From sequence record PQ671645.1: 64,000 nucleotides of DNA, one strand, 5' to 3'. The DNA is from Escherichia phage DCP548. The notes beneath the pieces are model-generated. The model searched no databases and was not told the DNA's origin. It worked only from the letters and a program-made list of their open reading frames with translations. Position numbers and translations under genes: made by a program. This document shows positions 1,490 to 59,752 of this stretch, in pieces (the first letter of the stretch is position 1; the number at the start of each line of letters is the position of its first letter).

Positions 1490-2149
1490 TTAACCTCGAT
1501 TCATAAATGCATTAAATATTTGGTCATCAACAGAAATTTCTAATTCGACTTCAATTGCTTCAGCCTTTTCTTCAGGTGGTAATTCGTATCCACATACTAC
1601 AATTTTTTCATCAATATCAAAATATACAGAAGCAATATGATTAATGTTATTTTCGGTTAAGTCTAAATCAACATCAACATCTTTTTGACCTACACTTAAA
1701 GGATAACTAATACGGGTTATTTTATTATCTTTAACAAAGAGTCCACCGACATACTCTGTACTACGTTTGAAGTTTACACGTTTCCGAAATGAAAGATATG
1801 ATGCATCTTTACCGTGAGCTCGGCTCATAGGACATAATGAATAGCTAGAATAAGAGATGTCAAATCCTACACCTTCAATATGAGCCAACGTGTCATGAGT
1901 AAACCAATTATAATCATATGCCAAATCCATTAAATTATAATATGTGAAAGGCACCGGATTAACATCATATGTTGTACCTTTAAAATCTGCCCAGGCAACG
2001 ATTTCGTTATCTTTAACAATTACAAAAATTACACCAATATGATATCCTTTATTATTTTCATTCGGCGTTATATTATAACATTGTGCATTAGGAAATTTAC
2101 CATATTTAAATGGCGCATTTTTGTGCATATAATAAATCATATTATTCAC
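1490..2149 (-). CDS. hypothetical protein
   Basis: 219-aa minus ORF; no motif recognised. Confidence 0.5.
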   Translation of the reverse strand: MNNMIYYMHKNAPFKYGKFPNAQCYNITPNENNKGYHIGVIFVIVKDNEIVAWADFKGTTYDVNPVPFTYYNLMDLAYDYNWFTHDTLAHIEGVGFDISYSSYSLCPMSRAHGKDASYLSFRKRVNFKRSTEYVGGLFVKDNKITRISYPLSVGQKDVDVDLDLTENNINHIASVYFDIDEKIVVCGYELPPEEKAEAIEVELEISVDDQIFNAFMNRG

Positions 2150-11192: not shown

Positions 11193-11594
11193 TTATAGAT
11201 TCGGTTTATATGATTTAAATGTTTCGAATTCGCCTTTATTCATAAGAGCTTTGAATTCGTCAGGACGCATAGCTTTGTCGTCGATAATCCAATCATATAC
11301 TGGTTTATGTGTTAGCAAATTATGGTACTTCAAGCCAATGTTTGCCAAGTTCTGAATCAGACTTGGGAGAATGTCAATTGCTATACGGCCAGGACCTACT
11401 GACTTCATACCGCGAGCAGTGTAAAGCGTTATTGTATGCCCTGCATCATACAGGGCATTAATGGCAGACACCATTTCGACGTCTGGTTTGAAGTTCACGT
11501 AATCACGATTGTTATTCCACTCTGTTATACAATCATCGACATCAAAACAAAGATTAAGCATGTTTTCTACACGGTGCATTAGATTCGTTCCCAT
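11193..11594 (-). CDS. HAD-superfamily phosphatase, KdsC-like
   Basis: 133 aa; motif I FDVDDCI, later TARG and K...DD motifs. Confidence 0.6.
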   Translation of the reverse strand: MGTNLMHRVENMLNLCFDVDDCITEWNNNRDYVNFKPDVEMVSAINALYDAGHTITLYTARGMKSVGPGRIAIDILPSLIQNLANIGLKYHNLLTHKPVYDWIIDDKAMRPDEFKALMNKGEFETFKSYKPNL

Positions 11595-13264
11595 TGATGA
11601 GTGATATCGCCACCGATTGGACGATAGGAAACACCAGTTTCTTTATCAGTTAGTACCCATTTACCAGGATTTTTTGTAATCAGAGTAGCCGTTACAGGTT
11701 CTGCTACGTCATAACTAATAGAGCCGTCCTGAAGTACACGGCCCATGTTACGTAATTGCTTAGTCAGAAGTTCCATACCTTTATAATATGCGGCTACCGC
11801 TTTAAGTGGATTATTCTTGAAATAACCACCTAATGCAATCCAGATAATTGCCACTGCCAAATGATGATACTCGTTAAACGAACTCATCTTTCCATATTTG
11901 TAAACTAATGGATTGATGTTAATAGTCACATTACAAGTTGTTTCATCAATAGTAAATTGCCCCCAGGTCGGATTAGCATTGAATTCATCATAACCTGAAA
12001 CAGCATAAAGCACTTTAGCTTCATCATACAATTTTGGCCCATAAATCTTGGTTTCGCCAAAATATCCACGAGGGTCGATAAACTTGACTTCACCATTATC
12101 AGTAATCATAGTATTACTAAAGTTCGGGTCACCATGAATAACAGAGTACTGTCCCTGAGAACGGTTATGATAACGAATAAGGTGTTCTAAAGCTTGTTTC
12201 AGCATTGGCTTCAGACGCCCAATCTTAGTGTAGTTCACATGTGTGATTTTACCAAATGAATCAATCAATGGTTGAATACTTTCACAACGATCAATAACTT
12301 TCGTATAGAACTCTTTAGTGAAATCACGACGAACAGTTTCAGGACTTACAAAATAAGTGTCTGTGCTGAATTTCAGTGCGTCTAAAATTGCATCAACAAT
12401 TTGTGGACGAGCAAGACTTGATTTGGATTTAATATATTCAAATGCCGGCTTACCTTTAATGCGTTCCATTTCAAAGTTATTTTCATTAACAGAAACTAAC
12501 TGAGGAACTGAATCTGATTTCACTTTAAGATACCATGAAATCTCATCTTTCTGAAGAGCTCGGCCCTGTTCGGTTAATGCGAATTTAGTTACAGTTTCTT
12601 CACCGATTTCAACTGCATTAAAACTACGATTAAGTTCACGAACTTCATGAGCCTTTTCAAGTTTAGGCATATCACCTAAATCAATTAGATTCATAAGCTC
12701 TGATTTATTGAATGCGCTGCCGTAAAGGAATTCTACGAAATCACGTCCTTTGCAGTATTCATGAATTTCCTCATCAGTAGAACCCATATAGAATTCCCAG
12801 TCTTTGAACTGATAAATTCCTACAACATTACCACCTGTTGAACCTACGTTAGTGATATTTTCACCGTCGAAATTATATCGACATTCGTCACCCTTAACAT
12901 AGATTGCGTTAACATTCCAAGACCATGAACCAAAATCGGGAATAATATCACACCAGTTAACAATTACATTATGGCCGTCTAAATCTTTGTGCAATTTAGC
13001 AAGAGCATAAGCAGAACCATATGCTTCATCAACTGTACGAATAGTCACATTGAACCCTTCTTGCTCACAATAAGCTCGAACAGTTTCAGCAAATTTTGAA
13101 TGAACTACTACAATAATTTCGTCTGCGCCAAGGTCAGAATAAATTGTATACAAATTGCTCAGAATAGTGTCTTGTTTATAGTTAACAAGCACCTTAGGAA
13201 TATGATGCGTTATTGGATACAAACGAGTTGCCAGTCCAGCACCAAGAATAACAGCTTTTTTCAT
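11579..13264 (-). CDS. bifunctional sugar-1-phosphate nucleotidyltransferase / kinase (LicC-LicA-like fusion)
   Basis: 561 aa; N-terminal ILGAGLATRLYPIT...PK (GxGxRL nucleotidyltransferase signature); C-terminal HGDPNFSN and FIDPRG (Brenner and DFG-like kinase motifs). Confidence 0.65.
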   Translation of the reverse strand: MKKAVILGAGLATRLYPITHHIPKVLVNYKQDTILSNLYTIYSDLGADEIIVVVHSKFAETVRAYCEQEGFNVTIRTVDEAYGSAYALAKLHKDLDGHNVIVNWCDIIPDFGSWSWNVNAIYVKGDECRYNFDGENITNVGSTGGNVVGIYQFKDWEFYMGSTDEEIHEYCKGRDFVEFLYGSAFNKSELMNLIDLGDMPKLEKAHEVRELNRSFNAVEIGEETVTKFALTEQGRALQKDEISWYLKVKSDSVPQLVSVNENNFEMERIKGKPAFEYIKSKSSLARPQIVDAILDALKFSTDTYFVSPETVRRDFTKEFYTKVIDRCESIQPLIDSFGKITHVNYTKIGRLKPMLKQALEHLIRYHNRSQGQYSVIHGDPNFSNTMITDNGEVKFIDPRGYFGETKIYGPKLYDEAKVLYAVSGYDEFNANPTWGQFTIDETTCNVTININPLVYKYGKMSSFNEYHHLAVAIIWIALGGYFKNNPLKAVAAYYKGMELLTKQLRNMGRVLQDGSISYDVAEPVTATLITKNPGKWVLTDKETGVSYRPIGGDITHQWERI

Positions 13265-13305
13265 GTTGTGGTCCTCATTGGTAAGTAGGAGTATTGTACA
13301 CTATT

Positions 13306-13449
13306 CTAGTTAAAGCATTCATACTTTGCTTGTAGTCCAATCATAATCCATCCAATTACAAGTGTTGGAATCATTACCGGAGCCGTTAAGCTCCAGTAGA
13401 TAGTCATGACAAGCATCAATAGTAAAAGTCCTATTGTTATTGCTTTCAT
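13306..13449 (-). CDS. small hydrophobic peptide (47 aa)
   Basis: Hand-found: ATG overlaps the isomerase stop (ATGA); MKAITIGLLLLMLVMTIYWSLTAPVMIPTLVIGWIMIGLQ...; below ORF-track size cut-off. Confidence 0.35.
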   Translation of the reverse strand: MKAITIGLLLLMLVMTIYWSLTAPVMIPTLVIGWIMIGLQAKYECFN

Positions 13450-14081
13450 TGTTCGCCTCGTAACATGGCACCTAGTGCACCGCCAGGGTGGAACTTAAGG
13501 AAATCATTAGAGGTAAATCCACGTTCAGACGAAAGGTTGATAGCAAACGTATCGATAAGCGCTAACAACAATGTAGTGGACATTGTCGGAGCTAAAGAGT
13601 TCTCGTCAACTTCTACAGCGATACCGGTACAGAACGTATAATCAAAAAGAGCTTCGTATTCTTGTGGAATGTCAGGGTTACAATGCAACAGAATCTGTTT
13701 GACGTTCGGACGAATCATTTTAAGATGCTTAGCCACGCCTATCATTTCTTCAGTTTTACCAGAACGACTAATATGAATCAACACATCATTAGGCGCAATG
13801 AATCCTGCATCACCGTGAGAATAATGCCCGGTGTTCAAGTACATACTCGGGATACCGAGTGAAGCAAATGTCTCAGAAGCTTTAGTTGCGATATTAGCGT
13901 TCTTACCAACACCTGTAATAATTACACGACTTTCATAATTACTAAGTCCAGGGCGTCGAAGAGTTTCTAGAATAGCATTATAACGAGCAGGGTTTTGACT
14001 AATTACTTTGGCCATAGCGGCCAAAGAAGAAGCTTGTTTTATGATTGCGTCAATAGCGATAGTAATAGGAGTAGTTTTCAT
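13446..14081 (-). CDS. SIS-domain sugar-phosphate isomerase, arabinose-5-phosphate isomerase-like (KdsD/GutQ)
   Basis: 211 aa; GVGKNANIATK SIS motif and C-terminal FHPGGALG characteristic of KdsD/GutQ. Confidence 0.7.
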   Translation of the reverse strand: MKTTPITIAIDAIIKQASSLAAMAKVISQNPARYNAILETLRRPGLSNYESRVIITGVGKNANIATKASETFASLGIPSMYLNTGHYSHGDAGFIAPNDVLIHISRSGKTEEMIGVAKHLKMIRPNVKQILLHCNPDIPQEYEALFDYTFCTGIAVEVDENSLAPTMSTTLLLALIDTFAINLSSERGFTSNDFLKFHPGGALGAMLRGEQ

Positions 14082-33173: not shown

Positions 33174-33478
33174 TATAATGTTCTCTCAAATTTGTGGAAG
33201 CATTTACGGCATTTCAATTTCAAGTTATCAGTGGTCCAGTTAACCAGTTGGACTTGGATAGTTCCACATTCCGGGCACGGATGTTTTGCTGCCGATTTGG
33301 CAGCATTTTCACGTCGTTCAACCATTTTCATTATTTCGTTCCATGCCGGAGGAACGAACTCTTCTTCAACGTGGATTTTATCTCGCTGAACAAATTCAAT
33401 CTTTGAACTATCGTCAATAAACTTAACCAAACCGTGATTAGTGTTCATATCAATATCCTCTAAAAGACGTAGTTTCAT
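33173..33478 (-). CDS. putative zinc-ribbon protein
   Basis: 101 aa; CPECG...CRKC pair. Confidence 0.45.
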   Translation of the reverse strand: MKLRLLEDIDMNTNHGLVKFIDDSSKIEFVQRDKIHVEEEFVPPAWNEIMKMVERRENAAKSAAKHPCPECGTIQVQLVNWTTDNLKLKCRKCFHKFERTL

Positions 33479-34422
33479 TATAAAACCTCAATGGCATTTC
33501 GTAAACCATCAGCTTTTGCATTCAGAGCTTTTAATGATTTAGTTTGTTCTGCAATCTGGGCTTCGACTTCTTTCAGGCGAGATTTGAGATATTCGCGTTC
33601 TTCTCTTAAGTTATCAACTTTTTCTGCTTTAGGCTCTTTAATAGGCTTATACTCGTTAGGGTTCTTCAACTTAATTTGAATGCGAGAACTGTATAACATT
33701 GAACCATTATCTTCGGTTTCATCATACATTTCTACCACGTCCATGATTCTTAACATCATGCGAAGTTTATAAGACAGCGAACGAATGGTTTTGTTGTGCT
33801 TATTAATTTCTTCGGCTTTCATGGTACCGAGATTACGTGAGTAGTAATAAGGAACCTGGATATCAATTGATAACGATGCGGTACCATTACCTGTTGGTTT
33901 GAACACTGCAGTAACCCAATCTTTAGCATGAACTGTATTTGTACGATCATCGCCACCTGTGAATAATTTACGTGAATGTTTAAAAAGCATATTCACTTGG
34001 TTATTGAATTCACAAGCAAATTTATCAGCAAATTTAGTTTCAGGAATGGTAGATAACCAATCAGCCAAATGAGTCTTTTTAACATCATTAACAATAGTGA
34101 ATTCAACCAAATCGGTTTTAGATGTCACAGATTTAATAAAGCTCGGCTTCATAAAGTTTTTAATGTTATCGCGAGCTACAGTAGAAGATAATAAACGAGA
34201 ACGTTTGAACCATTGAAGCAGTGTCCCTAATGAATGAGAATATGCATTCTGAGTATCTTTACAGATATGATTTTCTTGGCCTGTGTATGTACCAAAATCG
34301 CGAAGAATACCACTTACTACAACTCGGTGTGGAACATCAAATCCTAATGAACCAGAAGCACGTTGGGCATGAACGTTAGCGATAAGACCTGCAAAATAAT
34401 CAATGTAATGTGAACGTGTCAT
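33478..34422 (-). CDS. hypothetical protein with C-terminal coiled coil
   Basis: 314 aa; heptad-rich C-terminus; own promoter upstream. Confidence 0.5.
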   Translation of the reverse strand: MTRSHYIDYFAGLIANVHAQRASGSLGFDVPHRVVVSGILRDFGTYTGQENHICKDTQNAYSHSLGTLLQWFKRSRLLSSTVARDNIKNFMKPSFIKSVTSKTDLVEFTIVNDVKKTHLADWLSTIPETKFADKFACEFNNQVNMLFKHSRKLFTGGDDRTNTVHAKDWVTAVFKPTGNGTASLSIDIQVPYYYSRNLGTMKAEEINKHNKTIRSLSYKLRMMLRIMDVVEMYDETEDNGSMLYSSRIQIKLKNPNEYKPIKEPKAEKVDNLREEREYLKSRLKEVEAQIAEQTKSLKALNAKADGLRNAIEVL

Positions 34423-34450
34423 AATATTTTCCTCTCGTTAAGATAGAAAG

Positions 34451-34480
34451 ATTATACTCCAACCATCCTTGGTTGTAAAC
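34451..34480 (-). promoter_or_regulatory. early promoter with palindromic spacer
   Basis: Minus GTTTAC, aaCCAAGGATGGTTGGag, TATAAT. Confidence 0.55.
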
Positions 34481-34484
34481 TGAT

Positions 34485-35420
34485 TTATGATTTTAATGCA
34501 TTCATTGCGTTAAAAAGTTTAGAGTACTGCAACTGGAGCTTGGTAACTACTTGTTGAGCATCACGAAGCTTAGCTTGTGCTTTGTCAAGTTCAACAGACA
34601 GTTGGTCCACAGTGGCTTTGATTTGATTATAATAGTAATCTTCGGCAGGAAGAAGACCGTTAGAGATTTCCAGTTTAGTCGACGGTGAAGTGTATATAGA
34701 TGGAGCAGTAAAATATGCACCTTGAACTTCAGCATTGCCAATTGGGGTTGTAGTAATTGACGCTTCGAACGTTGCATTTTCCTTTTTAAGATTTTGATAG
34801 TATTCAGAGTCTTTGTGCCACCATGGCGCAGGAACCTTTTTACCAATAGATACACGAGCCTGGATAGCGATATGACCCTTATTCTTGATAGGGTTGATAA
34901 TATTAAGCTCACGAGAATAAATTGCTTTAATCTGGTGGATATTATCACCTAACACTTCCAACGCTTGGTGGAATACACGAGCAACGTTATCATTCTTAGG
35001 TTTATACGTAAGAGTGAACTCGTTCTCACTGATAACCATGATTTCTAACTTATCGTAAGTATATTTCAAATGTTTCATGTTAATTGCTTGAGGACGAATA
35101 CGAGAAGCAATGGCCATCAGATTGTTAAGGTTATTCCTGAACTGCTTAGCGAAATATTGTCCTTCACCGCCAATACAAAAATTACGAAGTTTCTGTTTGG
35201 CTAATAAACGGCTGAACTCACCATTTTTAATGAACTCTTTAACGGGTGTGTTAGTAACGCATTCAAATTGAGTAAACTTACGAGAATTAATCCCATAATA
35301 TGAACAGATTTCCTCAATCTCTTCAGGAGTCTTTACAGGCATACGGATAGGATTAGGTCCTGGGGTATATGCGTTCGAGGTAAATTCTTTGATAAGTTCT
35401 CTACGTGTAATAGAAGCCAT
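34485..35420 (-). CDS. hypothetical protein with C-terminal coiled coil
   Basis: 311 aa; own promoter upstream. Confidence 0.5.
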   Translation of the reverse strand: MASITRRELIKEFTSNAYTPGPNPIRMPVKTPEEIEEICSYYGINSRKFTQFECVTNTPVKEFIKNGEFSRLLAKQKLRNFCIGGEGQYFAKQFRNNLNNLMAIASRIRPQAINMKHLKYTYDKLEIMVISENEFTLTYKPKNDNVARVFHQALEVLGDNIHQIKAIYSRELNIINPIKNKGHIAIQARVSIGKKVPAPWWHKDSEYYQNLKKENATFEASITTTPIGNAEVQGAYFTAPSIYTSPSTKLEISNGLLPAEDYYYNQIKATVDQLSVELDKAQAKLRDAQQVVTKLQLQYSKLFNAMNALKS

Positions 35421-35446
35421 TTTATATTCCTCATGTTGAAAAATTT

Positions 35447-35476
35447 ATTATACTCCAACCATCCTTGGTTGTACAT
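35447..35476 (-). promoter_or_regulatory. early promoter with palindromic spacer
   Basis: Minus ATGTAC, aaCCAAGGATGGTTGGag, TATAAT; near-copy of the 34451..34480 element. Confidence 0.5.
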
Positions 35477-36471
35477 CATTCCTTAAGAAGTTTTACTACC
35501 TGAATAAGATTAGCTCGTTCTGTTTTATTTTTACTGTTTAAGCCTGCTAATCGTGAGATTTCATCGTCAGTCTGTTGAATAGTTACATTAAGTTCGTTAA
35601 TCAAAGCTTCAAAGTATTTGATTTGCTCAGCATGTTTTGATTCGAATTTCTGAACCGGAATAACGTCTTGGTTTAGTTCATCAATAAGGTCTTTAAGAGC
35701 ATCTTCTTGGTTGATATCATATTCAACTTCTTTTATTTCTTCAACGAGCTCGTCTTTATATCTAACGTCTTTTAGTCCTGGTGCTGGTCCTGAAATCTCT
35801 TCTTTAAGAGTACAAACATATCCAATACGGTATCCAATGCTGTCTCGCTTGATATCAACTTCGTCAATAAATCCACAATGTTTAAGACCAGAGCCGATTA
35901 GGTCAAAATATCCTTGACGTCGTCCTTCAAACGTTACACGAACTACTAAGACAGTTTTACCTGCGACCTTTTGAAGCTCACATTTATAAAAGTCTGTTGA
36001 ACCTGAATAACGTGGATGAGTTTTAAAGTTCATCTGACGATCTAGGCCCATTTGTAAGCGTGCTGATACGGCCATAAAACGTGTTTGATTCTCGTTAAGA
36101 TGAGCAACAATCCATTTCAAAGGCATTTTACACTGTTCACGACCGAACAAATCAGTACGTCCTAGATTACGCAGGATGTTGTTAGAGTTAATCATCGACA
36201 GAACGTTAAGTTTATTCAGCGCGCTGAAGATTCCATCGGCCATTGATTTTCCGTAACCTTTACACGCTTTAATAAGCGCTCGTGGTAGGTTAGTATAGAT
36301 TTCAGACGGCATATGAAAATCAAATTTACTAGTCAGTAATTGATGAACTTGGATAGCAATTTGCTCATAATTAAGTGCTCTGCGATCATTATGGTCTTTA
36401 AACCACACTTTAATCTGTGAAGCACATAAACCGTTAATTTCATGTTTTACCGCATCAGATGTAATGCTCAT
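35476..36471 (-). CDS. hypothetical protein with C-terminal coiled coil
   Basis: 331 aa; own promoter-like element upstream. Confidence 0.5.
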   Translation of the reverse strand: MSITSDAVKHEINGLCASQIKVWFKDHNDRRALNYEQIAIQVHQLLTSKFDFHMPSEIYTNLPRALIKACKGYGKSMADGIFSALNKLNVLSMINSNNILRNLGRTDLFGREQCKMPLKWIVAHLNENQTRFMAVSARLQMGLDRQMNFKTHPRYSGSTDFYKCELQKVAGKTVLVVRVTFEGRRQGYFDLIGSGLKHCGFIDEVDIKRDSIGYRIGYVCTLKEEISGPAPGLKDVRYKDELVEEIKEVEYDINQEDALKDLIDELNQDVIPVQKFESKHAEQIKYFEALINELNVTIQQTDDEISRLAGLNSKNKTERANLIQVVKLLKE

Positions 36472-36533
36472 AACTATTTCCTCAGATTGAATTGGAACTC
36501 AAAACCATTATAACCCGTCCTTGGGTAAAGCGT

Positions 36534-37061
36534 TTATGCGTGAACCGTCTTTAAACGTTCTTCAAATTTCCGAAGAGTACTAATACGTTCTGCTTTCTGT
36601 TTTGTATAGTTTGCAATACGTTCTGAAGTGAGAGCGTATCGTTCATTTACTGTTTCTTTCATGAAGTCAGGGATTTCACGAGAAGCTTTAATTTCGTCAA
36701 ACTTGTCGAGTACTGCCTGGTCTTCAGCGATTAAATTTTCGTACATCTCGATATCTTTCTTGATAAACTCGATATCTTCCTGGGTTACTTTGGATAAACG
36801 AGATGCTTTATCCTTTTTGTACTGCTCGTTAGTTTCACGAGACCAGAATAATGTACGTTTTTTGTTAGTGTTTTTGTAGACTTCCACAATTCCAACTGAA
36901 TCGATGATAGCAATCCAATTCCAGCGAGATTTGAAAATCTGACCTCCGTCCACGGTAATCTCGTTACCATAAGCAACGTCATTAAAGAACTTGCTTTGTG
37001 CTTCAGATTTAAATTTACCGTCGTTATAATTTACCAGGTTGAAAATATCTTTAGCGTTCAT
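36534..37061 (-). CDS. hypothetical protein
   Basis: 175-aa minus ORF; early promoter upstream. Confidence 0.5.
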   Translation of the reverse strand: MNAKDIFNLVNYNDGKFKSEAQSKFFNDVAYGNEITVDGGQIFKSRWNWIAIIDSVGIVEVYKNTNKKRTLFWSRETNEQYKKDKASRLSKVTQEDIEFIKKDIEMYENLIAEDQAVLDKFDEIKASREIPDFMKETVNERYALTSERIANYTKQKAERISTLRKFEERLKTVHA

Positions 37062-37084
37062 GTTTTACCTCCAGTAGTTGATAG

Positions 37085-37117
37085 GTCTATAATAACATAA
37101 CTATAGACCTTGTAAAC
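37085..37117 (-). promoter_or_regulatory. early promoter with inverted repeat
   Basis: Minus GTTTAC, spacer, TATTAT; inverted repeat GGTCTATA/TATAGACC. Confidence 0.5.
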
Positions 37118-37119
37118 AA

Positions 37120-37407
37120 CTAAAAGAAACTTTTTTCGGTATTTTTTCCACTGAACCAAACAGACTTCGGGATTTTTTGTAATTTTTCAGATTTAAGTTT
37201 CTCTTCCTGTTCTTTCTTATATACACCCTTGTCGTACTGGAGCATCTCTATGGCATTCTTTTGCAAATGATCTAAGGTAATTAAGGCTTTAGTTTTTCCT
37301 TTCAAGGAAGAGTCCTGGCGAACCTCCTCGCTATATTGCATCGTAGAACTAATCATACGATGAGCATAGAGTTCAACTGCGGCTTTAATTTTTTGCATAA
37401 AATCCAT
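37120..37407 (-). CDS. hypothetical protein
   Basis: 95-aa Lys/Glu-rich minus ORF. Confidence 0.4.
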   Translation of the reverse strand: MDFMQKIKAAVELYAHRMISSTMQYSEEVRQDSSLKGKTKALITLDHLQKNAIEMLQYDKGVYKKEQEEKLKSEKLQKIPKSVWFSGKNTEKSFF

Positions 37408-37545
37408 AACATATCCTCTTTGATTTGTACATCATTATTTTTAAATATTTCTATGCCCTCAGTAGGTTCCTAGTGTCCTTCTTTGAGGTAAGCCATATGA
37501 TTATTCATCTTTATGGCTTTTGTTACCTCAGAACTTCCTATAAGC

Positions 37546-38547
37546 TTATTTCAGTAAAGTTACTTCAGAGATTTCCTCCCAACCATCTTTATCAGTTGAA
37601 ATAAAATCTGCTACATAAAGAGCCGTACGTAATGATACATTGCGAAGACGAGATACGTTAGCCTTCATCCAGGACAATGCTTTATACGTTTCTGCATCCG
37701 TCAGACCACGTTTCTGCATCATGTCAGTAGATAATATTACGTCTTCAACTCGAACCATAATCTCTTCATTAGAGTGTACTCCAAGATCGAGATACACTGA
37801 ACGAGATACTAAAGCTTGAAGGTGTGGGGCAAGTTTCGAACCGCGTTCTAACTCTTTATCGATATCAACGTTTGTAATGAAAACGATAGTACCTTCAAAC
37901 TCAAATTCTTTATCAATACCCTTATCATCGAGATAAGATGACGCAGTGCTCCAACAAACTTTGCGTTTATCTCCAGTATCTAATGCTGCTTTAAGAAGGT
38001 TCAAGATGTCCATATCTGAGAATACGTCAACGTCGTCGATTAAGAGAACGCTGTCTGCATCACGGTTGAGCCAAAGTTGTTCGTAAAGGCCAATACCAGA
38101 GATTTTACCATTAATGCTTTTGTATTTGATGAAACCATTATCATTAGCATTATTAAGTGCTTTATCCAGAGAATACGTCTTACCAATACCAGCTGCACCT
38201 GAAATAATGAGTGAACGAATTTTGCCATCGATAATGCCATTCGTCATCATGTTCATTACTTTAAAGCGTTTGTTGATACGAGTTTTCATATCTTCAGTGC
38301 TTTCAACAACTGCAACTGGTGACGTCTCAACTCCTTCCATTACGATGTCTGATTTGAAGACCCATACTCCACGTTCAGAACCATCAATCATAACGAAAAT
38401 TTTACCATCACCTAAGTGGGAACATTCAGGATTAAGCTTTGCCGGGAACCAGGTCTTTGTGGCAACATAAGAACCAGAGATTTCGTTATTACGATAGATA
38501 CCTTTTTTGATTTGAACGTTGAACATTTTATTCTCCAATTTACTCAT
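37546..38547 (-). CDS. P-loop ATPase (AAA-like)
   Basis: 333 aa; Walker A GAAGIGKT, Walker B LLIDDVD. Confidence 0.6.
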   Translation of the reverse strand: MSKLENKMFNVQIKKGIYRNNEISGSYVATKTWFPAKLNPECSHLGDGKIFVMIDGSERGVWVFKSDIVMEGVETSPVAVVESTEDMKTRINKRFKVMNMMTNGIIDGKIRSLIISGAAGIGKTYSLDKALNNANDNGFIKYKSINGKISGIGLYEQLWLNRDADSVLLIDDVDVFSDMDILNLLKAALDTGDKRKVCWSTASSYLDDKGIDKEFEFEGTIVFITNVDIDKELERGSKLAPHLQALVSRSVYLDLGVHSNEEIMVRVEDVILSTDMMQKRGLTDAETYKALSWMKANVSRLRNVSLRTALYVADFISTDKDGWEEISEVTLLK

Positions 38548-38564
38548 TTCGTTTCGATAGGTCT

Positions 38565-38593
38565 ATAATAACATATCCTAAAAGCATGTACAC
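38565..38593 (-). promoter_or_regulatory. early promoter upstream of ATPase gene
   Basis: Minus GTGTAC, 17 nt, TATTAT. Confidence 0.45.
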
Positions 38594-38623
38594 CACTTTT
38601 TTAAATATTTTAACCCCCTAAAG

Positions 38624-38639
38624 GGACCCGAAGGTCCCC
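38624..38639 (-). other. intercistronic RNA hairpin with UUCG tetraloop
   Basis: GGGACC-UUCG-GGUCCC 4 nt after the stop of ORF 38644..38910, upstream of an early promoter. Confidence 0.5.
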
Positions 38640-38643
38640 ACAT

Positions 38644-38910
38644 TTACTTATCGCACTTAGCAACATAATTAGGCATATCACAGAATACGGAGCGAGTAAC
38701 TACTCGGCCCTTTGACCATGCTTCAGTTGCTTGTCCGGCGGTGCTATTAATATAGCTTGATCTAATGTTCTCAATACCCTGAGAATGTGATGCATTTACC
38801 GAACCATTAGAAGGCCCAGAAGACTGGTTACCACCAGCTCCTGCACCCGTGGTAGCACCAACAGAGAATGCCATCATTACTGCGAATAAACCAATTACTA
38901 ATTTTTTCAT
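38644..38910 (-). CDS. secreted small protein
   Basis: 88 aa; signal peptide then Gly/Ser/Asn-rich region, two C-terminal Cys. Confidence 0.45.
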   Translation of the reverse strand: MKKLVIGLFAVMMAFSVGATTGAGAGGNQSSGPSNGSVNASHSQGIENIRSSYINSTAGQATEAWSKGRVVTRSVFCDMPNYVAKCDK

Positions 38911-38941
38911 ATTTACCTCAAGTTAATGGTTATTTATCTAC

Positions 38942-39931
38942 TTATTTATAGTAAGAATTATGATTTTCGAGATAGACTTGTTCAAGGAAATCATCCCAGA
39001 AACTCATATCTACTTTTTGTTGCATACCGTTCTTGGCAGCTTGTTCTGACGCATGTTCAACTTGGTCGACGATATCTTCTAGGAATTCTTGTACAGTTTT
39101 AAACGTATGTTTACCGAGCTTAACATCGAGAATAAATGGAGCATCCTGAAGTGGGTAAACCAGGTCGCCGGTTTTATAAATTTCTAATAGTTGAAGTCCA
39201 CCACGACATGCATGACTCAATGCTTTCCAATCAATACCTTCGTTAGCTTCTGCCTTACGAGCACGTTCGCCATAGTTCTCTTCTAGTTTAACCAGGATGG
39301 CATTGAACTCTTTATTGGTTAATGTGTCTTGGAATTTACGGTCTAACAGATTATAGAATGTTTGCTTACCTGTTTTCTCGTTTTCGGTTTCAACCCATGA
39401 AGCAAATTCACCTACAGGCAGAACATTCTTCATATGTGATAAACGAATTACTGCACCATTATCAAAGTATTGTCCCCATTCATTAGAACGTTTAAGGGCT
39501 TGACGAAGAACAGCCAGTCGAGAACCCTTGACACCGTATTTAGAAGCTTGCTTACGGACATACCCTAAATAAGATTTCATGTTAGTGGTATAGAAACGAG
39601 ACCTGTTATCTTGAATATACTTCCATACATCAGGCAAATCAGATTTAACTACTAAACTTGGTGGAGTGTGAAGCATATCTAATGCGACGGTTTCACCATC
39701 TGCAGCTAATTTAAAGAAATATTTGAGACTATACAACTCGTGGTCCACGTCGTCTTTTGTATTCTTAGAAGATGTGTTATTCGTGTTCTTGCTCATATGT
39801 TCTTTAACGTTACCGGTCAAAATATCACGAGCATGAGGGACATAAATTTCTTTAAAATCGACGTCAGATTCAGGAGTAGACGTTCCATAAAGGTGGCTAC
39901 CAAAGTAGCCTTTCATAATTGTTTTCATCAT
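38942..39931 (-). CDS. pol-beta-superfamily nucleotidyltransferase-fold protein
   Basis: 329 aa; N-terminal GYFGSHLYGTSTPESDVDF (GS ... DxD signature). Confidence 0.5.
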   Translation of the reverse strand: MMKTIMKGYFGSHLYGTSTPESDVDFKEIYVPHARDILTGNVKEHMSKNTNNTSSKNTKDDVDHELYSLKYFFKLAADGETVALDMLHTPPSLVVKSDLPDVWKYIQDNRSRFYTTNMKSYLGYVRKQASKYGVKGSRLAVLRQALKRSNEWGQYFDNGAVIRLSHMKNVLPVGEFASWVETENEKTGKQTFYNLLDRKFQDTLTNKEFNAILVKLEENYGERARKAEANEGIDWKALSHACRGGLQLLEIYKTGDLVYPLQDAPFILDVKLGKHTFKTVQEFLEDIVDQVEHASEQAAKNGMQQKVDMSFWDDFLEQVYLENHNSYYK

Positions 39932-42604: not shown

Positions 42605-43186
42605 TTATAACAACCCTGTCAAATCATTCCAATGCTTCCGGCATAATGACACATATCTATCAGTATCACCAATTTCAATTTGACTGCCATCTGTAATTGG
42701 AAGTCCGTCTTCCGTGACTCTAGCTACCATTGTGGCCTTTTTACCACAATGACAGACACCTTTAAGTTCAACAAGCTTATCGGCAATAGCCATTAATGCT
42801 TGAGAACCTTCAAATAGATTACCTTTAAAATCTGTTCGTAGTCCATATGCCATTACCGGCACATTGTATACGTCAACAATACGACTAAGTTGATACACCT
42901 TTTCAGTAGTTAAGAATTGAGCTTCGTCAACAAATACACAATGAATATCCTTTTGTGCTGCAGCCCATTTATAGAATTCAAAGATATCCATGTCTTTTGT
43001 AATTATATTGGCGTCCTGACGAATACCAATACGAGAGACTATTTCACCTTTTGAATCGCGAGTATCAATAGCCGGTTTAAGAACTAATACACCCATGCCA
43101 CGTTCTTTATAGTTATGTGCGGCAGTAAGTAATGAAGCAGACTTACCAGCGTTCATAGCGGCATATGTAAAAATTAAACTAGCCAT
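42605..43186 (-). CDS. tk: thymidine kinase
   Basis: 193 aa; MASLIFTYAAMNAGKSASLL..., VFVDEAQF, CHCGKKA zinc motif; matches remembered T4 Tk. Confidence 0.93.
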   Translation of the reverse strand: MASLIFTYAAMNAGKSASLLTAAHNYKERGMGVLVLKPAIDTRDSKGEIVSRIGIRQDANIITKDMDIFEFYKWAAAQKDIHCVFVDEAQFLTTEKVYQLSRIVDVYNVPVMAYGLRTDFKGNLFEGSQALMAIADKLVELKGVCHCGKKATMVARVTEDGLPITDGSQIEIGDTDRYVSLCRKHWNDLTGLL

Positions 43187-43195
43187 AAGAGTCCC

Positions 43196-43378
43196 TTATA
43201 GTGAATTCACGTAGTCAATGAGTTCTTGTTCTTTCCTGTCAAATGATTCCAACAATGTTTGATATTCTTCATCCGTCAAAGGAGCATATTCATCGTACGC
43301 ATTGGTGGCTGCTTGCTCATCCAATAGGTCATGGATAAGTTCGAACAGTTTAGCTTTCTCTTCTTTAGTTAATTTCAT
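43196..43378 (-). CDS. hypothetical small acidic protein
   Basis: 60-aa minus ORF. Confidence 0.4.
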   Translation of the reverse strand: MKLTKEEKAKLFELIHDLLDEQAATNAYDEYAPLTDEEYQTLLESFDRKEQELIDYVNSL

Positions 43379-43587: not shown

Positions 43588-43805
43588 GTCACCTTTAAGC
43601 AGTATTCTTCTACATGCTGTTTACGACCTTTCTTATCAATAAAGGTATATTCAACGAATGTTCCGATGTAGTCTTTATCTACATCATGTGGACTATTAAT
43701 TGGACATTTGGTACGACAAATGCGTTCCCATTGACGAATAATTACTACCTTATTCTTTGGGTCATATGGATGTGGATAATGTATATTCATAATAACGGTT
43801 CCCAA
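43578..43805 (-). CDS. hypothetical protein
   Basis: 75-aa minus ORF. Confidence 0.4.
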   Translation of the reverse strand: MGTVIMNIHYPHPYDPKNKVVIIRQWERICRTKCPINSPHDVDKDYIGTFVEYTFIDKKGRKQHVEEYCLKVTWL

Positions 43806-44284
43806 TCAACAATCACAATTTCTAGTTTAGTGGAATACGTATCTAAAATCTCTTCGATGACATCCCAGTTTCCACCACCGATACCTGCACCAATTCTTGG
43901 CATATAAATTACAGGCTTTGTTATCTTATTCTTTCCGAATTCATTTAATTCTATTATACAATTCATTAAAGCAGAGTACTCAAAATTAGGTCCCGGCTCA
44001 AACTGCGTATAAAGATTAAAGCAATAAGCTTTATGGGTCTTAAAATATTTTTCATAAACCGAATAAGTCCCGAGTTTAGACTTGTCTCCGAATTCGGTTT
44101 GAAGTTTATCGGCTTCTAAAATTTTTGGATAAGCCTTTGCTAATTGTCCTGCCACACCAGCGCCCATTGTATGAAAACAATTACACCCATGAGCAATATT
44201 ATTACCTTTAGAAAACAGGGCGACAATATCGCCCTTGATATAGTTTTTAATCACTTGCTGCAAGTCCTCTATTATAAGAGTCAA
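43787..44284 (-). CDS. macro-domain protein (ADP-ribose binding/processing fold)
   Basis: 165 aa; NIAHGCNCFHTMGAGVAGQLAKAY and IGAGIGGGNW glycine-rich loops. Confidence 0.6.
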   Translation of the reverse strand: MTLIIEDLQQVIKNYIKGDIVALFSKGNNIAHGCNCFHTMGAGVAGQLAKAYPKILEADKLQTEFGDKSKLGTYSVYEKYFKTHKAYCFNLYTQFEPGPNFEYSALMNCIIELNEFGKNKITKPVIYMPRIGAGIGGGNWDVIEEILDTYSTKLEIVIVDWEPLL

Positions 44285-59083: not shown

Positions 59084-59752
59084 TTACACTATAGAAGCAA
59101 TTAAATTGTTTACTTTATCATCTTTATAAACTTCAGAATAGTGGAGTTCATAAATTTCCCAGCCCAGGGATTTTATAATATCATGTCTTTCCTGATAATA
59201 TGGGGCCAGAATTTTCTTGTTATGATCGGAGTAATGTTGGTTACCGTTAACTTCAATAATTATTTTCTTATCCATCAAAGCAATGTCACAGGAATATGCT
59301 CTATTTTTAACAGGTTGATATTCCTCAACAAATTGTATATTTGCTTCTATTAATTTATTTTTCAAAAATTCGCACGGAACAGATTTGAATTTTGAATTCT
59401 TTTTCCAAGGGTGTTTATCTGGATTTTCCTTTAACCAGGTCTTCCGGGCTGCTGATATCTTTTGTTTGGATTCAGACGAATGCTTTCGTCCTGTGCCTGC
59501 AGCAGACAATTTTTCTCTTGTTTCTTCAGAAACAACTAAAGAAATGCCCTTCTTTTTGGCAACCATGAATTGATTTAAATTACCAGATTCTTTGCGTGCT
59601 TTATTCATAGCAGCGACTGCATTTTTAGAACCCTCTTTATAAGAGGCGAGTTTTGGATTTTCAGAACACCATCTGGTATGACTTGCCATCCATCCCTTTG
59701 GTTTATCAGAAATATCAAATTCTTTATTGCAGTGTTTGCAGATGCTCATCAA
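59084..59752 (-). CDS. homing-endonuclease-like protein (zinc finger + NUMOD3-like repeats + DUF559/PD-(D/E)xK-like C-terminus)
   Basis: 222 aa; N-terminal CKHC...HTRWC; SEETREKLSAAGTGRK and SESKQKISAARK NUMOD3-like repeats; C-terminal YSCDIALMDKKIIIEVNGNQHY. Confidence 0.5.
   Translation of the reverse strand: MMSICKHCNKEFDISDKPKGWMASHTRWCSENPKLASYKEGSKNAVAAMNKARKESGNLNQFMVAKKKGISLVVSEETREKLSAAGTGRKHSSESKQKISAARKTWLKENPDKHPWKKNSKFKSVPCEFLKNKLIEANIQFVEEYQPVKNRAYSCDIALMDKKIIIEVNGNQHYSDHNKKILAPYYQERHDIIKSLGWEIYELHYSEVYKDDKVNNLIASIV

Follow-up and report, generated by a model that had tools for sequence, protein, structure and literature searches.

Within the 64,000 nucleotides (nt) of Escherichia phage DCP548 that we analysed (sequence record PQ671645.1; this whole stretch is hereafter the window), a minus-strand gene lying between vs and tk.3, as in T4, encodes a small macrodomain protein. 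Its sequence and its surroundings identify it as the Mosigvirus ortholog of T4 tk.4, now called adfM (anti-DarT factor, macrodomain). Sequence comparison places the window in an RB69-like member of Mosigvirus, a genus of T4-like phages; over 3.2 kb surrounding the gene, identity reaches 98.9% with E. coli O157 typing phages 3, 6 and 13 and 98.7% with phage mogra. Annotated relatives show the gene order regB - vs.1 - vs - tk.4 - tk.3 - two small genes - tk; in the window the neighbours of tk.4 are vs, vs.1, regB, tk.3, a gene for a small Zn-binding protein, and tk, and a Pfam scan confirmed RegB, thymidine kinase and the small genes with domains of unknown function (DUF). The relatives label the gene itself 'macro domain protein', 'phosphatase' or 'Tk.4 conserved hypothetical protein'. 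T4 and RB9 have an extra small gene of 174 nt between tk.3 and tk (locus L003, 2086-2265), for which the window offers no counterpart (~42760-43200, 0% aligned identity).

An earlier note on this DNA, made from the letters alone, had placed the gene at 43787-44284. The open reading frame (ORF) found there is unbroken and runs to 165 codons when counted from a TTG at 44284; its matches to Pfam and PHROG profiles and its thousands of homologs show it to be a genuine conserved gene, not an ORF that arose by chance. The 5' end, in contrast, had been over-extended by 30 nt. When the DNA of the window was aligned with that of mogra, T4 and RB9, the GTG at 44254 fell at the position of an ATG in T4 and RB9, and the TTG fell opposite an in-frame TAG of T4; the N-terminus 'MI..(Y)IKGD' that begins at the GTG is common to all 39 aligned homologs. 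We therefore rejected the TTG, given the T4 stop codon and the fact that the homologs all start at the downstream GTG or ATG, and set the coding sequence at 155 amino acids (aa); annotation of the relatives likewise gives a gene length of 468 nt. Tk.4 probably lacks the residues that the in-frame segment ahead of the GTG could encode, judging from the same alignment, in which the GAGGA of the putative Shine-Dalgarno sequence is invariant across all four genomes. The gene overlaps the start of tk.3 by 4 nt and the stop of vs by 8 nt, whereas T4 tk.4 starts with ATG and overlaps vs by 4 nt. A scan of 42.4-47.3 kb for sigma-70-like promoters was uninformative, with 16 sites against 17.1 expected.

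Fold and active-site residues

The macrodomain assignment made in the earlier note was borne out. The Pfam Macro profile (PF01661) scored 28.2 bits against a gathering cut-off of 22 (E 1.9e-6), with residues 32-146 of the 165-aa ORF covering profile positions 2-117 of 118, and PHROG 335 matched at 1e-66. An AlphaFold2 model of Tk.4 built with 39 homologs (mean predicted local distance difference test score 94.7, predicted template modelling score 0.90) has the three-layer alpha/beta/alpha macro fold, and its top Foldseek match is human TARG1/OARD1 (E 4e-10). TARG1 was also recovered at E 6e-16 when the PDB was searched with the family profile, and searches with the single protein returned the same neighbours as those with the profile. 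In both sequence and structure Tk.4 is closer to the ALC1-like class than to MacroD, viral or PARG-type macrodomains. On the strength of the Pfam score, the model and the PDB neighbours, Tk.4 is a single-domain macrodomain of the ALC1-like class, which includes TARG1, DarG, SCO6735 and Poa1p. Its predicted ADP-ribose-binding loops, G31-A-G33 and G122-A-G124-I-G-G-G128, align with those of TARG1, DarG, SCO6735 and BT1257 and are invariant in the family.

To place the active-site residues, SCO6735, BT1257, TARG1 and two DarG macrodomain sequences were taken from PDB alignments, the PhiKZ macrodomain gp104 from its paper, and all were aligned with twelve family members in MAFFT; residue conservation was judged in 39 diverse homologs, and a motif was counted in 120 retrieved homologs. 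The earlier note had held that activity would be refuted if catalytic or binding residues were missing from an alignment with characterised macrodomains. The outcome was divided: Lys84 and Asp125 of TARG1 and Lys80 of DarG are absent, with Gln84 and Gly126 of Tk.4 at the columns of the two TARG1 residues, while the set described for SCO6735 (His24, Asn27, Gln85, Gly128) is present as H22, N25, Q84 and G124. Because this second set is there, the comparison fails to refute activity.

The assignment of Q84 to the catalytic column came from the profile alignment to TARG1 and BT1257 and from MAFFT. A pairwise phmmer alignment that set SCO6735 Gln85 opposite Cys78 did so in a low-confidence stretch and was discarded, as the BT1257 profile alignment and MAFFT both give Q84. 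SCO6735 and BT1257 have Gln at this column, within N-M-I-G-Q, and the motif N-x-[YFI]-[TSG]-Q occurs in 120 of the 120 retrieved homologs; in the DarG proteins of T. aquaticus and M. tuberculosis and in gp104 the same column holds the Lys of an F-P-T-K motif. Among the 39 homologs, G23, N25, Q84, P119, I121, G122, G124 and W130 are invariant and H22 and C24 are conserved in at least 90%. The glycines of the GxG motif, a macrodomain feature described previously (PMC9503650), extend further: both G31 and G33 are shared without exception by the Tk.4 family, SCO6735, BT1257, TARG1, DarG and PhiKZ AdfM.

These columns have been probed experimentally in related proteins. Gln85 of SCO6735 is the equivalent of the TARG1 and DarG lysines and its replacement (Q85A) abolishes activity; Asn27, His24 and Gly128 also matter, with G128E losing activity; and the enzyme cleaves thymidine-linked ADP-ribose (T-ADPr) from DNA and protects against DarT (PMC9411070). 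In PhiKZ AdfM, the N23A substitution at the column of N25 reduces activity (PMC13309987), and the Asn of this column may be the active-site residue that positions the catalytic one. Conservation of H22, N25, Q84 and G124, together with the unbroken occurrence of the motif, indicates that Tk.4 is an active enzyme of a Gln type.

Table 1. Coordinates of tk.4 and of other features in the window.
Feature	Position	Strand	Details
AdfA (anti-DarT factor A)	1490-2128	-	Pfam PF23813, E 2e-121
tk.4 / adfM coding sequence	43787..44254	-	155 aa; GTG start at 44254; TAA stop at 43789-43787
tk.4 allelic hot spot	43787-44150 (locus L003 1306-1725 and the L004 equivalent)	-	identity profiles
Predicted phosphate-binding loop, codons P119-R-I-G-A-G-I-G-G-G-N-W130	43865..43900	-	G124 aligns with SCO6735 G128 and TARG1 G123
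Codons N80-L-Y-T-Q84	44003..44017	-	Q84 at the catalytic-residue column (SCO6735 Gln85, TARG1 Lys84, DarG Lys80)
Codons G31-A32-G33, GxG motif after strand 2	44156..44164	-	predicted lining of the ADP-ribose cleft; alignment
Codons H22-G23-C24-N25	44180..44191	-	align with SCO6735 H24-V25-C26-N27, DarG N22, PhiKZ AdfM N23
RNA hairpin AGGGCGAUAUUGUCGCCCU	44217..44235	-	8-bp perfect stem, 3-nt loop, then U-rich tract; within tk.4 codons 7-13; terminator-like scan
In-frame 5' extension of the maximal ORF	44255..44284	-	3' end of vs, read in another frame
AGAGGA, putative Shine-Dalgarno for the GTG start	44265..44270	-	GAGG to GTG 11 nt; function inferred from sequence

The likeness to SCO6735 has limits. 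Identity of Tk.4 to SCO6735 and BT1257 is 23-29% (23% to SCO6735 itself), Gly23 of Tk.4 stands where SCO6735 has Val25, and the mobile loop of SCO6735, in which Lys89 and Lys94 help DNA binding (PMC9411070), is 5-6 residues longer than the Lys-free QFEPGPNFEY of Tk.4. SCO6735 is moreover a DNA-damage-inducible bacterial gene, whereas tk.4 is a phage early gene. The low identity, Gly23 and the missing long Lys loop rule out orthology with SCO6735 and place Tk.4 in a separate subfamily.

A DarG antitoxin can be dismissed as well. Relative to DarG of T. aquaticus and M. tuberculosis, Tk.4 has Gln in place of Lys80, lacks the C-terminal DarT-binding domain and has no adjoining toxin. The NCBIfam equivalog model for DarG (NF048014) gave it 31.3 bits against a cut-off of 250 and was matched only at positions 4-146 of 338, and the PADLOC DarG model at positions 4-145 of 329. 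The score, the length of 155 aa, the absent catalytic Lys and the lack of a toxin partner all speak against this identity.

The T4 ortholog and a proposed role against DarT2

Tk.4 of DCP548 is 83.9% identical to T4 Tk.4, has the same length (155 aa) and retains all of the conserved residues; this identity, together with the shared regB-vs.1-vs-tk.4-tk.3-...-tk synteny, puts the two proteins in one orthologous group, even though the DCP548 gene sits in an RB69-like Mosigvirus. The T4 gene has a known phenotype. Transposon mapping in T4 (HIDEN-SEQ, a November 2025 preprint) returned tk.4 as the single significant hit on a DarTG2 host, a clean deletion of tk.4 sensitised T4 to DarTG2, the gene was renamed adfM, and its authors inferred, without an assay, that AdfM removes ADP-ribose from DNA (bioRxiv 10.1101/2025.11.20.689424). 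The suggestion of the earlier note that the protein could counter host ADP-ribosylating defences is thus supported through the ortholog. A role of tk.4 against DarTG2 also fits the observation that T4 and T2 keep their DarTG2 resistance without the anti-DarT1 factor AdfN (PMC11825919). In a panel of hydrolases, homologs of DarG, SCO6735 and TARG1 were the robust T-ADPr hydrolases, with human TARG1/OARD1 likewise hydrolysing T-ADPr on DNA, and ARH3 and MACROD2 showed low activity only (PMC12879935); TARG1 carries the Lys84/Asp125 dyad where Tk.4 has Gln84 and Gly126.

We consider it likely that the product of the DCP548 tk.4/adfM ortholog acts as an orphan antitoxin-like glycohydrolase, stripping DarT2-made ADP-ribose from thymidines in phage single-stranded DNA (ssDNA). 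According to this model, Tk.4 would be produced early in infection as a stand-alone ADP-ribosyl-glycohydrolase. In a DarTG2 host, DarT2 would ADP-ribosylate the N3 of thymidine in TNTC motifs of phage ssDNA and block replication; Tk.4, with the ADP-ribose held by its GxG and G-rich loops, would hydrolyse the ribose-thymine bond and restore the template. The chemistry would probably follow the SCO6735 scheme and not the lysine scheme of DarG and TARG1, with Asn25 holding Gln84, Gln84 contacting the distal ribose and an activated water making the attack. We infer the same role for the DCP548 allele, T-ADPr in ssDNA as its substrate and the Gln-based chemistry from the T4 genetics and the residue comparisons.

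Several points weigh against this proposal, and it should be read with them in mind. Support for the function of a Tk.4-type protein is genetic, from T4, and comes from a preprint; the DCP548 allele differs from T4 Tk.4 at 25 of 155 residues (G127, for example, where T4 has Lys); and the T-even phages carry two strongly diverged forms of tk.4 (59% identity, T4 against RB9), such that the specificity of alleles could differ. Tk.4 also lacks both the catalytic Lys and the C-terminal DarT-binding domain of DarG, as well as the longer Lys-bearing mobile loop that aids DNA binding by SCO6735. Its sequence similarity to Poa1p, an ADP-ribose-1''-phosphate phosphatase, is comparable to that to DarG. 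Finally, bacterial relatives are unlinked to DarT, and the ancestral role of the family may differ.

The missing Lys and Asp bear on whether hydrolysis is needed at all. One may postulate that DarT2 is neutralised mainly by binding, through sequestration of the toxin or non-catalytic shielding of ADP-ribosylated sites, with hydrolysis dispensable; catalytically dead SCO6735 Q85A, DarG K80A and TARG1 K84A do still inhibit DarT in vitro by interaction (PMC9411070). We regard this as very unlikely to be the main mode of action, however, as N25, Q84 and G124 are invariant and H22 is at least 90% conserved over diverged homologs, some of them bacterial with no DarT in their neighbourhood, a pattern to be expected of an enzyme active site, and the toxin-binding C-terminal domain of DarG is absent. 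Inhibition of DarT2 by interaction may nonetheless contribute alongside the hydrolysis that we favour.

The similarity to Poa1p raises a different alternative, in which Tk.4 is an ADP-ribose-1''-phosphate phosphatase or O-acetyl-ADP-ribose deacetylase that clears NAD-derived metabolites or immune signals and does not act on DNA adducts. Database labels ('phosphatase', 'Poa1p_like') point this way, and H22 and T29 align with His23 and Ser30 of Poa1p. At the Gln84 column, however, Poa1p has a Ser where the Tk.4 family has an invariant Gln, as does the DNA-acting SCO6735; the only known phenotype of an ortholog is specific to the DNA-modifying DarTG2; and neither a KptA/Tpt1 nor a sirtuin partner was found nearby in the annotation of a relative or in Pfam scans of the window. 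We judge such a small-molecule activity quite improbable, and removal of ADP-ribose from DNA remains the explanation that we prefer.

A further question is how Tk.4 relates to gp104 of phage PhiKZ, which was independently given the name AdfM. Both are stand-alone phage macrodomains directed against DarTG2, and gp104, which is imported into the phage nucleus of this chimallivirus, removes DarT2-made ADP-ribose from DNA in vitro (2026 paper, PMC13309987). The PhiKZ protein is nevertheless DarG-like, with the F-P-T-K motif and a match to M. tuberculosis DarG at E 9e-25, and BLASTP aligned only 23 of its residues with Tk.4. The short alignment and the Lys-type, DarG-like character of gp104 exclude a common lineage of the two AdfM proteins.

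The macrodomain label in GenBank relatives and the named anti-defence function of the T4 ortholog are already known. The additions made here are the Gln-type, SCO6735-like active site, the separation from PhiKZ AdfM, the mosaicism of tk.4 alleles and a co-occurring AdfA allele with His164 (both described below); the step past the literature consulted is mechanistic, in that T4-type AdfM matches the Gln-type SCO6735 and not DarG at the catalytic residue. The distinction between Gln and Lys bears on predictions of DarTG2 resistance in phages, on nomenclature and on the choice of catalytically dead controls, which would be Q84A or N25A and not a Lys mutant.

Distribution and allele exchange

Homologs of Tk.4 are widespread among phages. 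A tblastn search found them in 2846 of 50,697 phage records, spanning Straboviridae and many other large myoviruses of Escherichia, Klebsiella, Salmonella, Pseudomonas, Vibrio, Acinetobacter and Aeromonas. A phmmer search over 1.84 billion cluster representatives gave 5363 matches at E<=1e-3 and 1577 at E<=1e-10, and nearly all of the best 150 of the 5363 are stand-alone proteins of ~150 aa. One match of 1314 aa with 23 matched stretches (P0133) was set aside as a tandem-repeat artefact.

Bacterial relatives, counted with one genome per species, numbered 237 at 32-45% identity and came from Rhodobacterales, Verrucomicrobiota, Planctomycetota, Desulfobacterales and Bacteroidota. We kept 80 of these loci (L008-L087), with 137 neighbouring ORFs, for an analysis of gene neighbourhoods. 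The macrodomain genes stand alone, with an ORF of 150-174 aa in 63 of the 80. No DarT2 was found in the 80 loci by tblastn with P. aeruginosa DarT2 as query, and when the 137 neighbouring ORFs were scanned with Pfam, the 25 commonest families included no DarT family, though single occurrences are possible. The commonest neighbour family was Exo_endo_phos (PF03372), with 12 of the 137 ORFs, which hints at a DNA-repair pairing of the bacterial Tk.4-type genes. Several Rhodobacterales loci have an upstream ORF of ~325 aa that ends right at the start of the macrodomain gene (for example L027 5027-6001, L034 4932-5933 and L056 5021-5995).

This distribution leaves room for a wider substrate range, in which Tk.4 would erase ADP-ribose from nucleic acids more broadly (RNA, adducts linked to phosphate ends, and also protein Asp/Glu-linked ADP-ribose), and DarT2 would be one of several defences countered. 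The spread of the family over 2846 records and many genera includes phages whose hosts are not known to carry DarTG2 commonly, the bacterial relatives are unlinked to DarT, and SCO6735 and TARG1 are active on both DNA and protein substrates (PMC9411070). The T4 screen, on the other hand, covered only a few defence systems, and the CmdTAC paper describes restriction of T-even phages by the mRNA ADP-ribosyltransferase CmdTAC despite their having tk.4. We therefore hold this broader activity to be unlikely, and continue to favour T-ADPr made by DarT2 as the target.

Within the T-even phages, the tk.4 locus shows an abrupt change in similarity. T4 and RB9 are 97-100% identical at the nt level in regB, vs.1, vs, tk.3 and tk, yet only 40-68% over tk.4 codons ~35-155, with the proteins 59% identical; the window and T4 are conversely 95-98% identical over the 3' end of tk.4 and tk.3 against a background of 65-85%. 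These profiles indicate recombinational exchange of alleles inside tk.4. A more far-reaching proposal would treat the Tk.4-type AdfM proteins as a large branch of the TARG1/DarG class that is of Gln type and found mainly in phages, with a lysine-independent, SCO6735-like mechanism and perhaps wider substrates (DNA, RNA, protein) than DarG, and would read the allele dimorphism as the mark of an arms race, fought against differing DarT2 variants or against a host factor able to sense or inhibit the macrodomain; taken as a whole, we find this doubtful.

The hairpin near the 5' end of the gene is identical in the window, T4 and RB9 despite differing flanking bases, and has a predicted energy of ~-14 kcal/mol in a 66-nt context. 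It may act on RNA stability or in attenuation, or simply reflect conservation of the coding sequence.

ADP-ribosyltransferases and other genes of the window

The earlier note had paired the macrodomain with an ADP-ribosyltransferase (ART)-like gene of the phage itself, and this pairing did not hold up: no ART family was found among ~40 window ORFs in Pfam and PHROG scans or among the genes that RefSeq annotates in the closest relative over the span of the window. The nearest candidates are two genes, ModA/ModB, annotated as 'RNA polymerase ADP-ribosylase' and located in that relative ~3 kb beyond the low end of the window. Their proximity would be compatible with Tk.4 erasing or reading marks made by the phage's own ARTs (Alt, ModA, ModB) and so tuning host takeover, a scenario that we consider extremely unlikely. 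Alt and ModA modify arginine (Arg265 of the RNA polymerase alpha subunit), which counts against it; Arg-N-glycosidic ADP-ribose is removed by ARH/DraG-type enzymes, and the substrates of TARG1-class macrodomains are Asp/Glu esters and adducts on nucleic acids. We know of no macrodomain for which Arg-linked ADP-ribose, the ModA/ModB product, is a substrate. Macro and ART domains do often occur together in large phages (PMC9503650), but the scans and the annotation showed no ART beside tk.4 or elsewhere in the window, and T4 tk.4 was dispensable without DarTG2 in the transposon screen (bioRxiv 10.1101/2025.11.20.689424). A host toxin, DarT2, remains in our view the probable source of the ADP-ribose that Tk.4 would remove.

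The window holds a second gene connected with DarT toxins. Its AdfA is identical to RB69 gp61.2 at 206 of 212 residues and has His at position 164; wild-type RB69 AdfA has Arg164 and is inactive, and R164H is an escape substitution that enables neutralisation of DarT1 (PMC11825919). Given this His164 and Tk.4/AdfM, the segment appears to carry counter-measures to both DarT1 and DarT2. AdfA (gp61.2) and AdfN (gp30.3, NADAR) of T4 are functional analogues of Tk.4, as orphan T-even counter-defence factors against DarT toxins, yet their folds are unrelated to that of Tk.4 and they act against DarT1, which makes guanosine-linked ADP-ribose, and not against DarT2 (PMC11825919). The gene studied here belongs to this arms race, in which phage DNA is ADP-ribosylated by DarT toxins and T-even-like phages are equipped with a set of orphan erasers and inhibitors that resemble antitoxins.

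Other parts of the window yielded observations of their own. At ~11579-14081 on the minus strand, adjoining the DNA polymerase gene, the closest relative is annotated with an arabinose-5-phosphate isomerase (KpsF), a 561-aa GlmU-like bifunctional protein and a phosphoheptose isomerase, which looks like a sugar-nucleotide module for the hypermodified hydroxymethyl-cytosine of RB69-like phages; if so read, the C of the DarT2 TNTC motif would be modified in DCP548-type DNA. A run of five minus-strand genes of ~310-330 aa occupies 33478-39931: one has a DUF7235 match, one weak AAA/STAND and helix-turn-helix matches, two match only PHROGs of unknown function, and the fifth is an RlaP-type nucleotidyltransferase ('RNA repair pathway DNA polymerase beta family', E 8e-13). 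Lastly, a 222-aa minus-strand ORF at 59084-59752, with a NUMOD3 motif and DUF559/RAP-like endonuclease-domain matches, is probably a homing endonuclease in the neighbourhood of the tRNA region.

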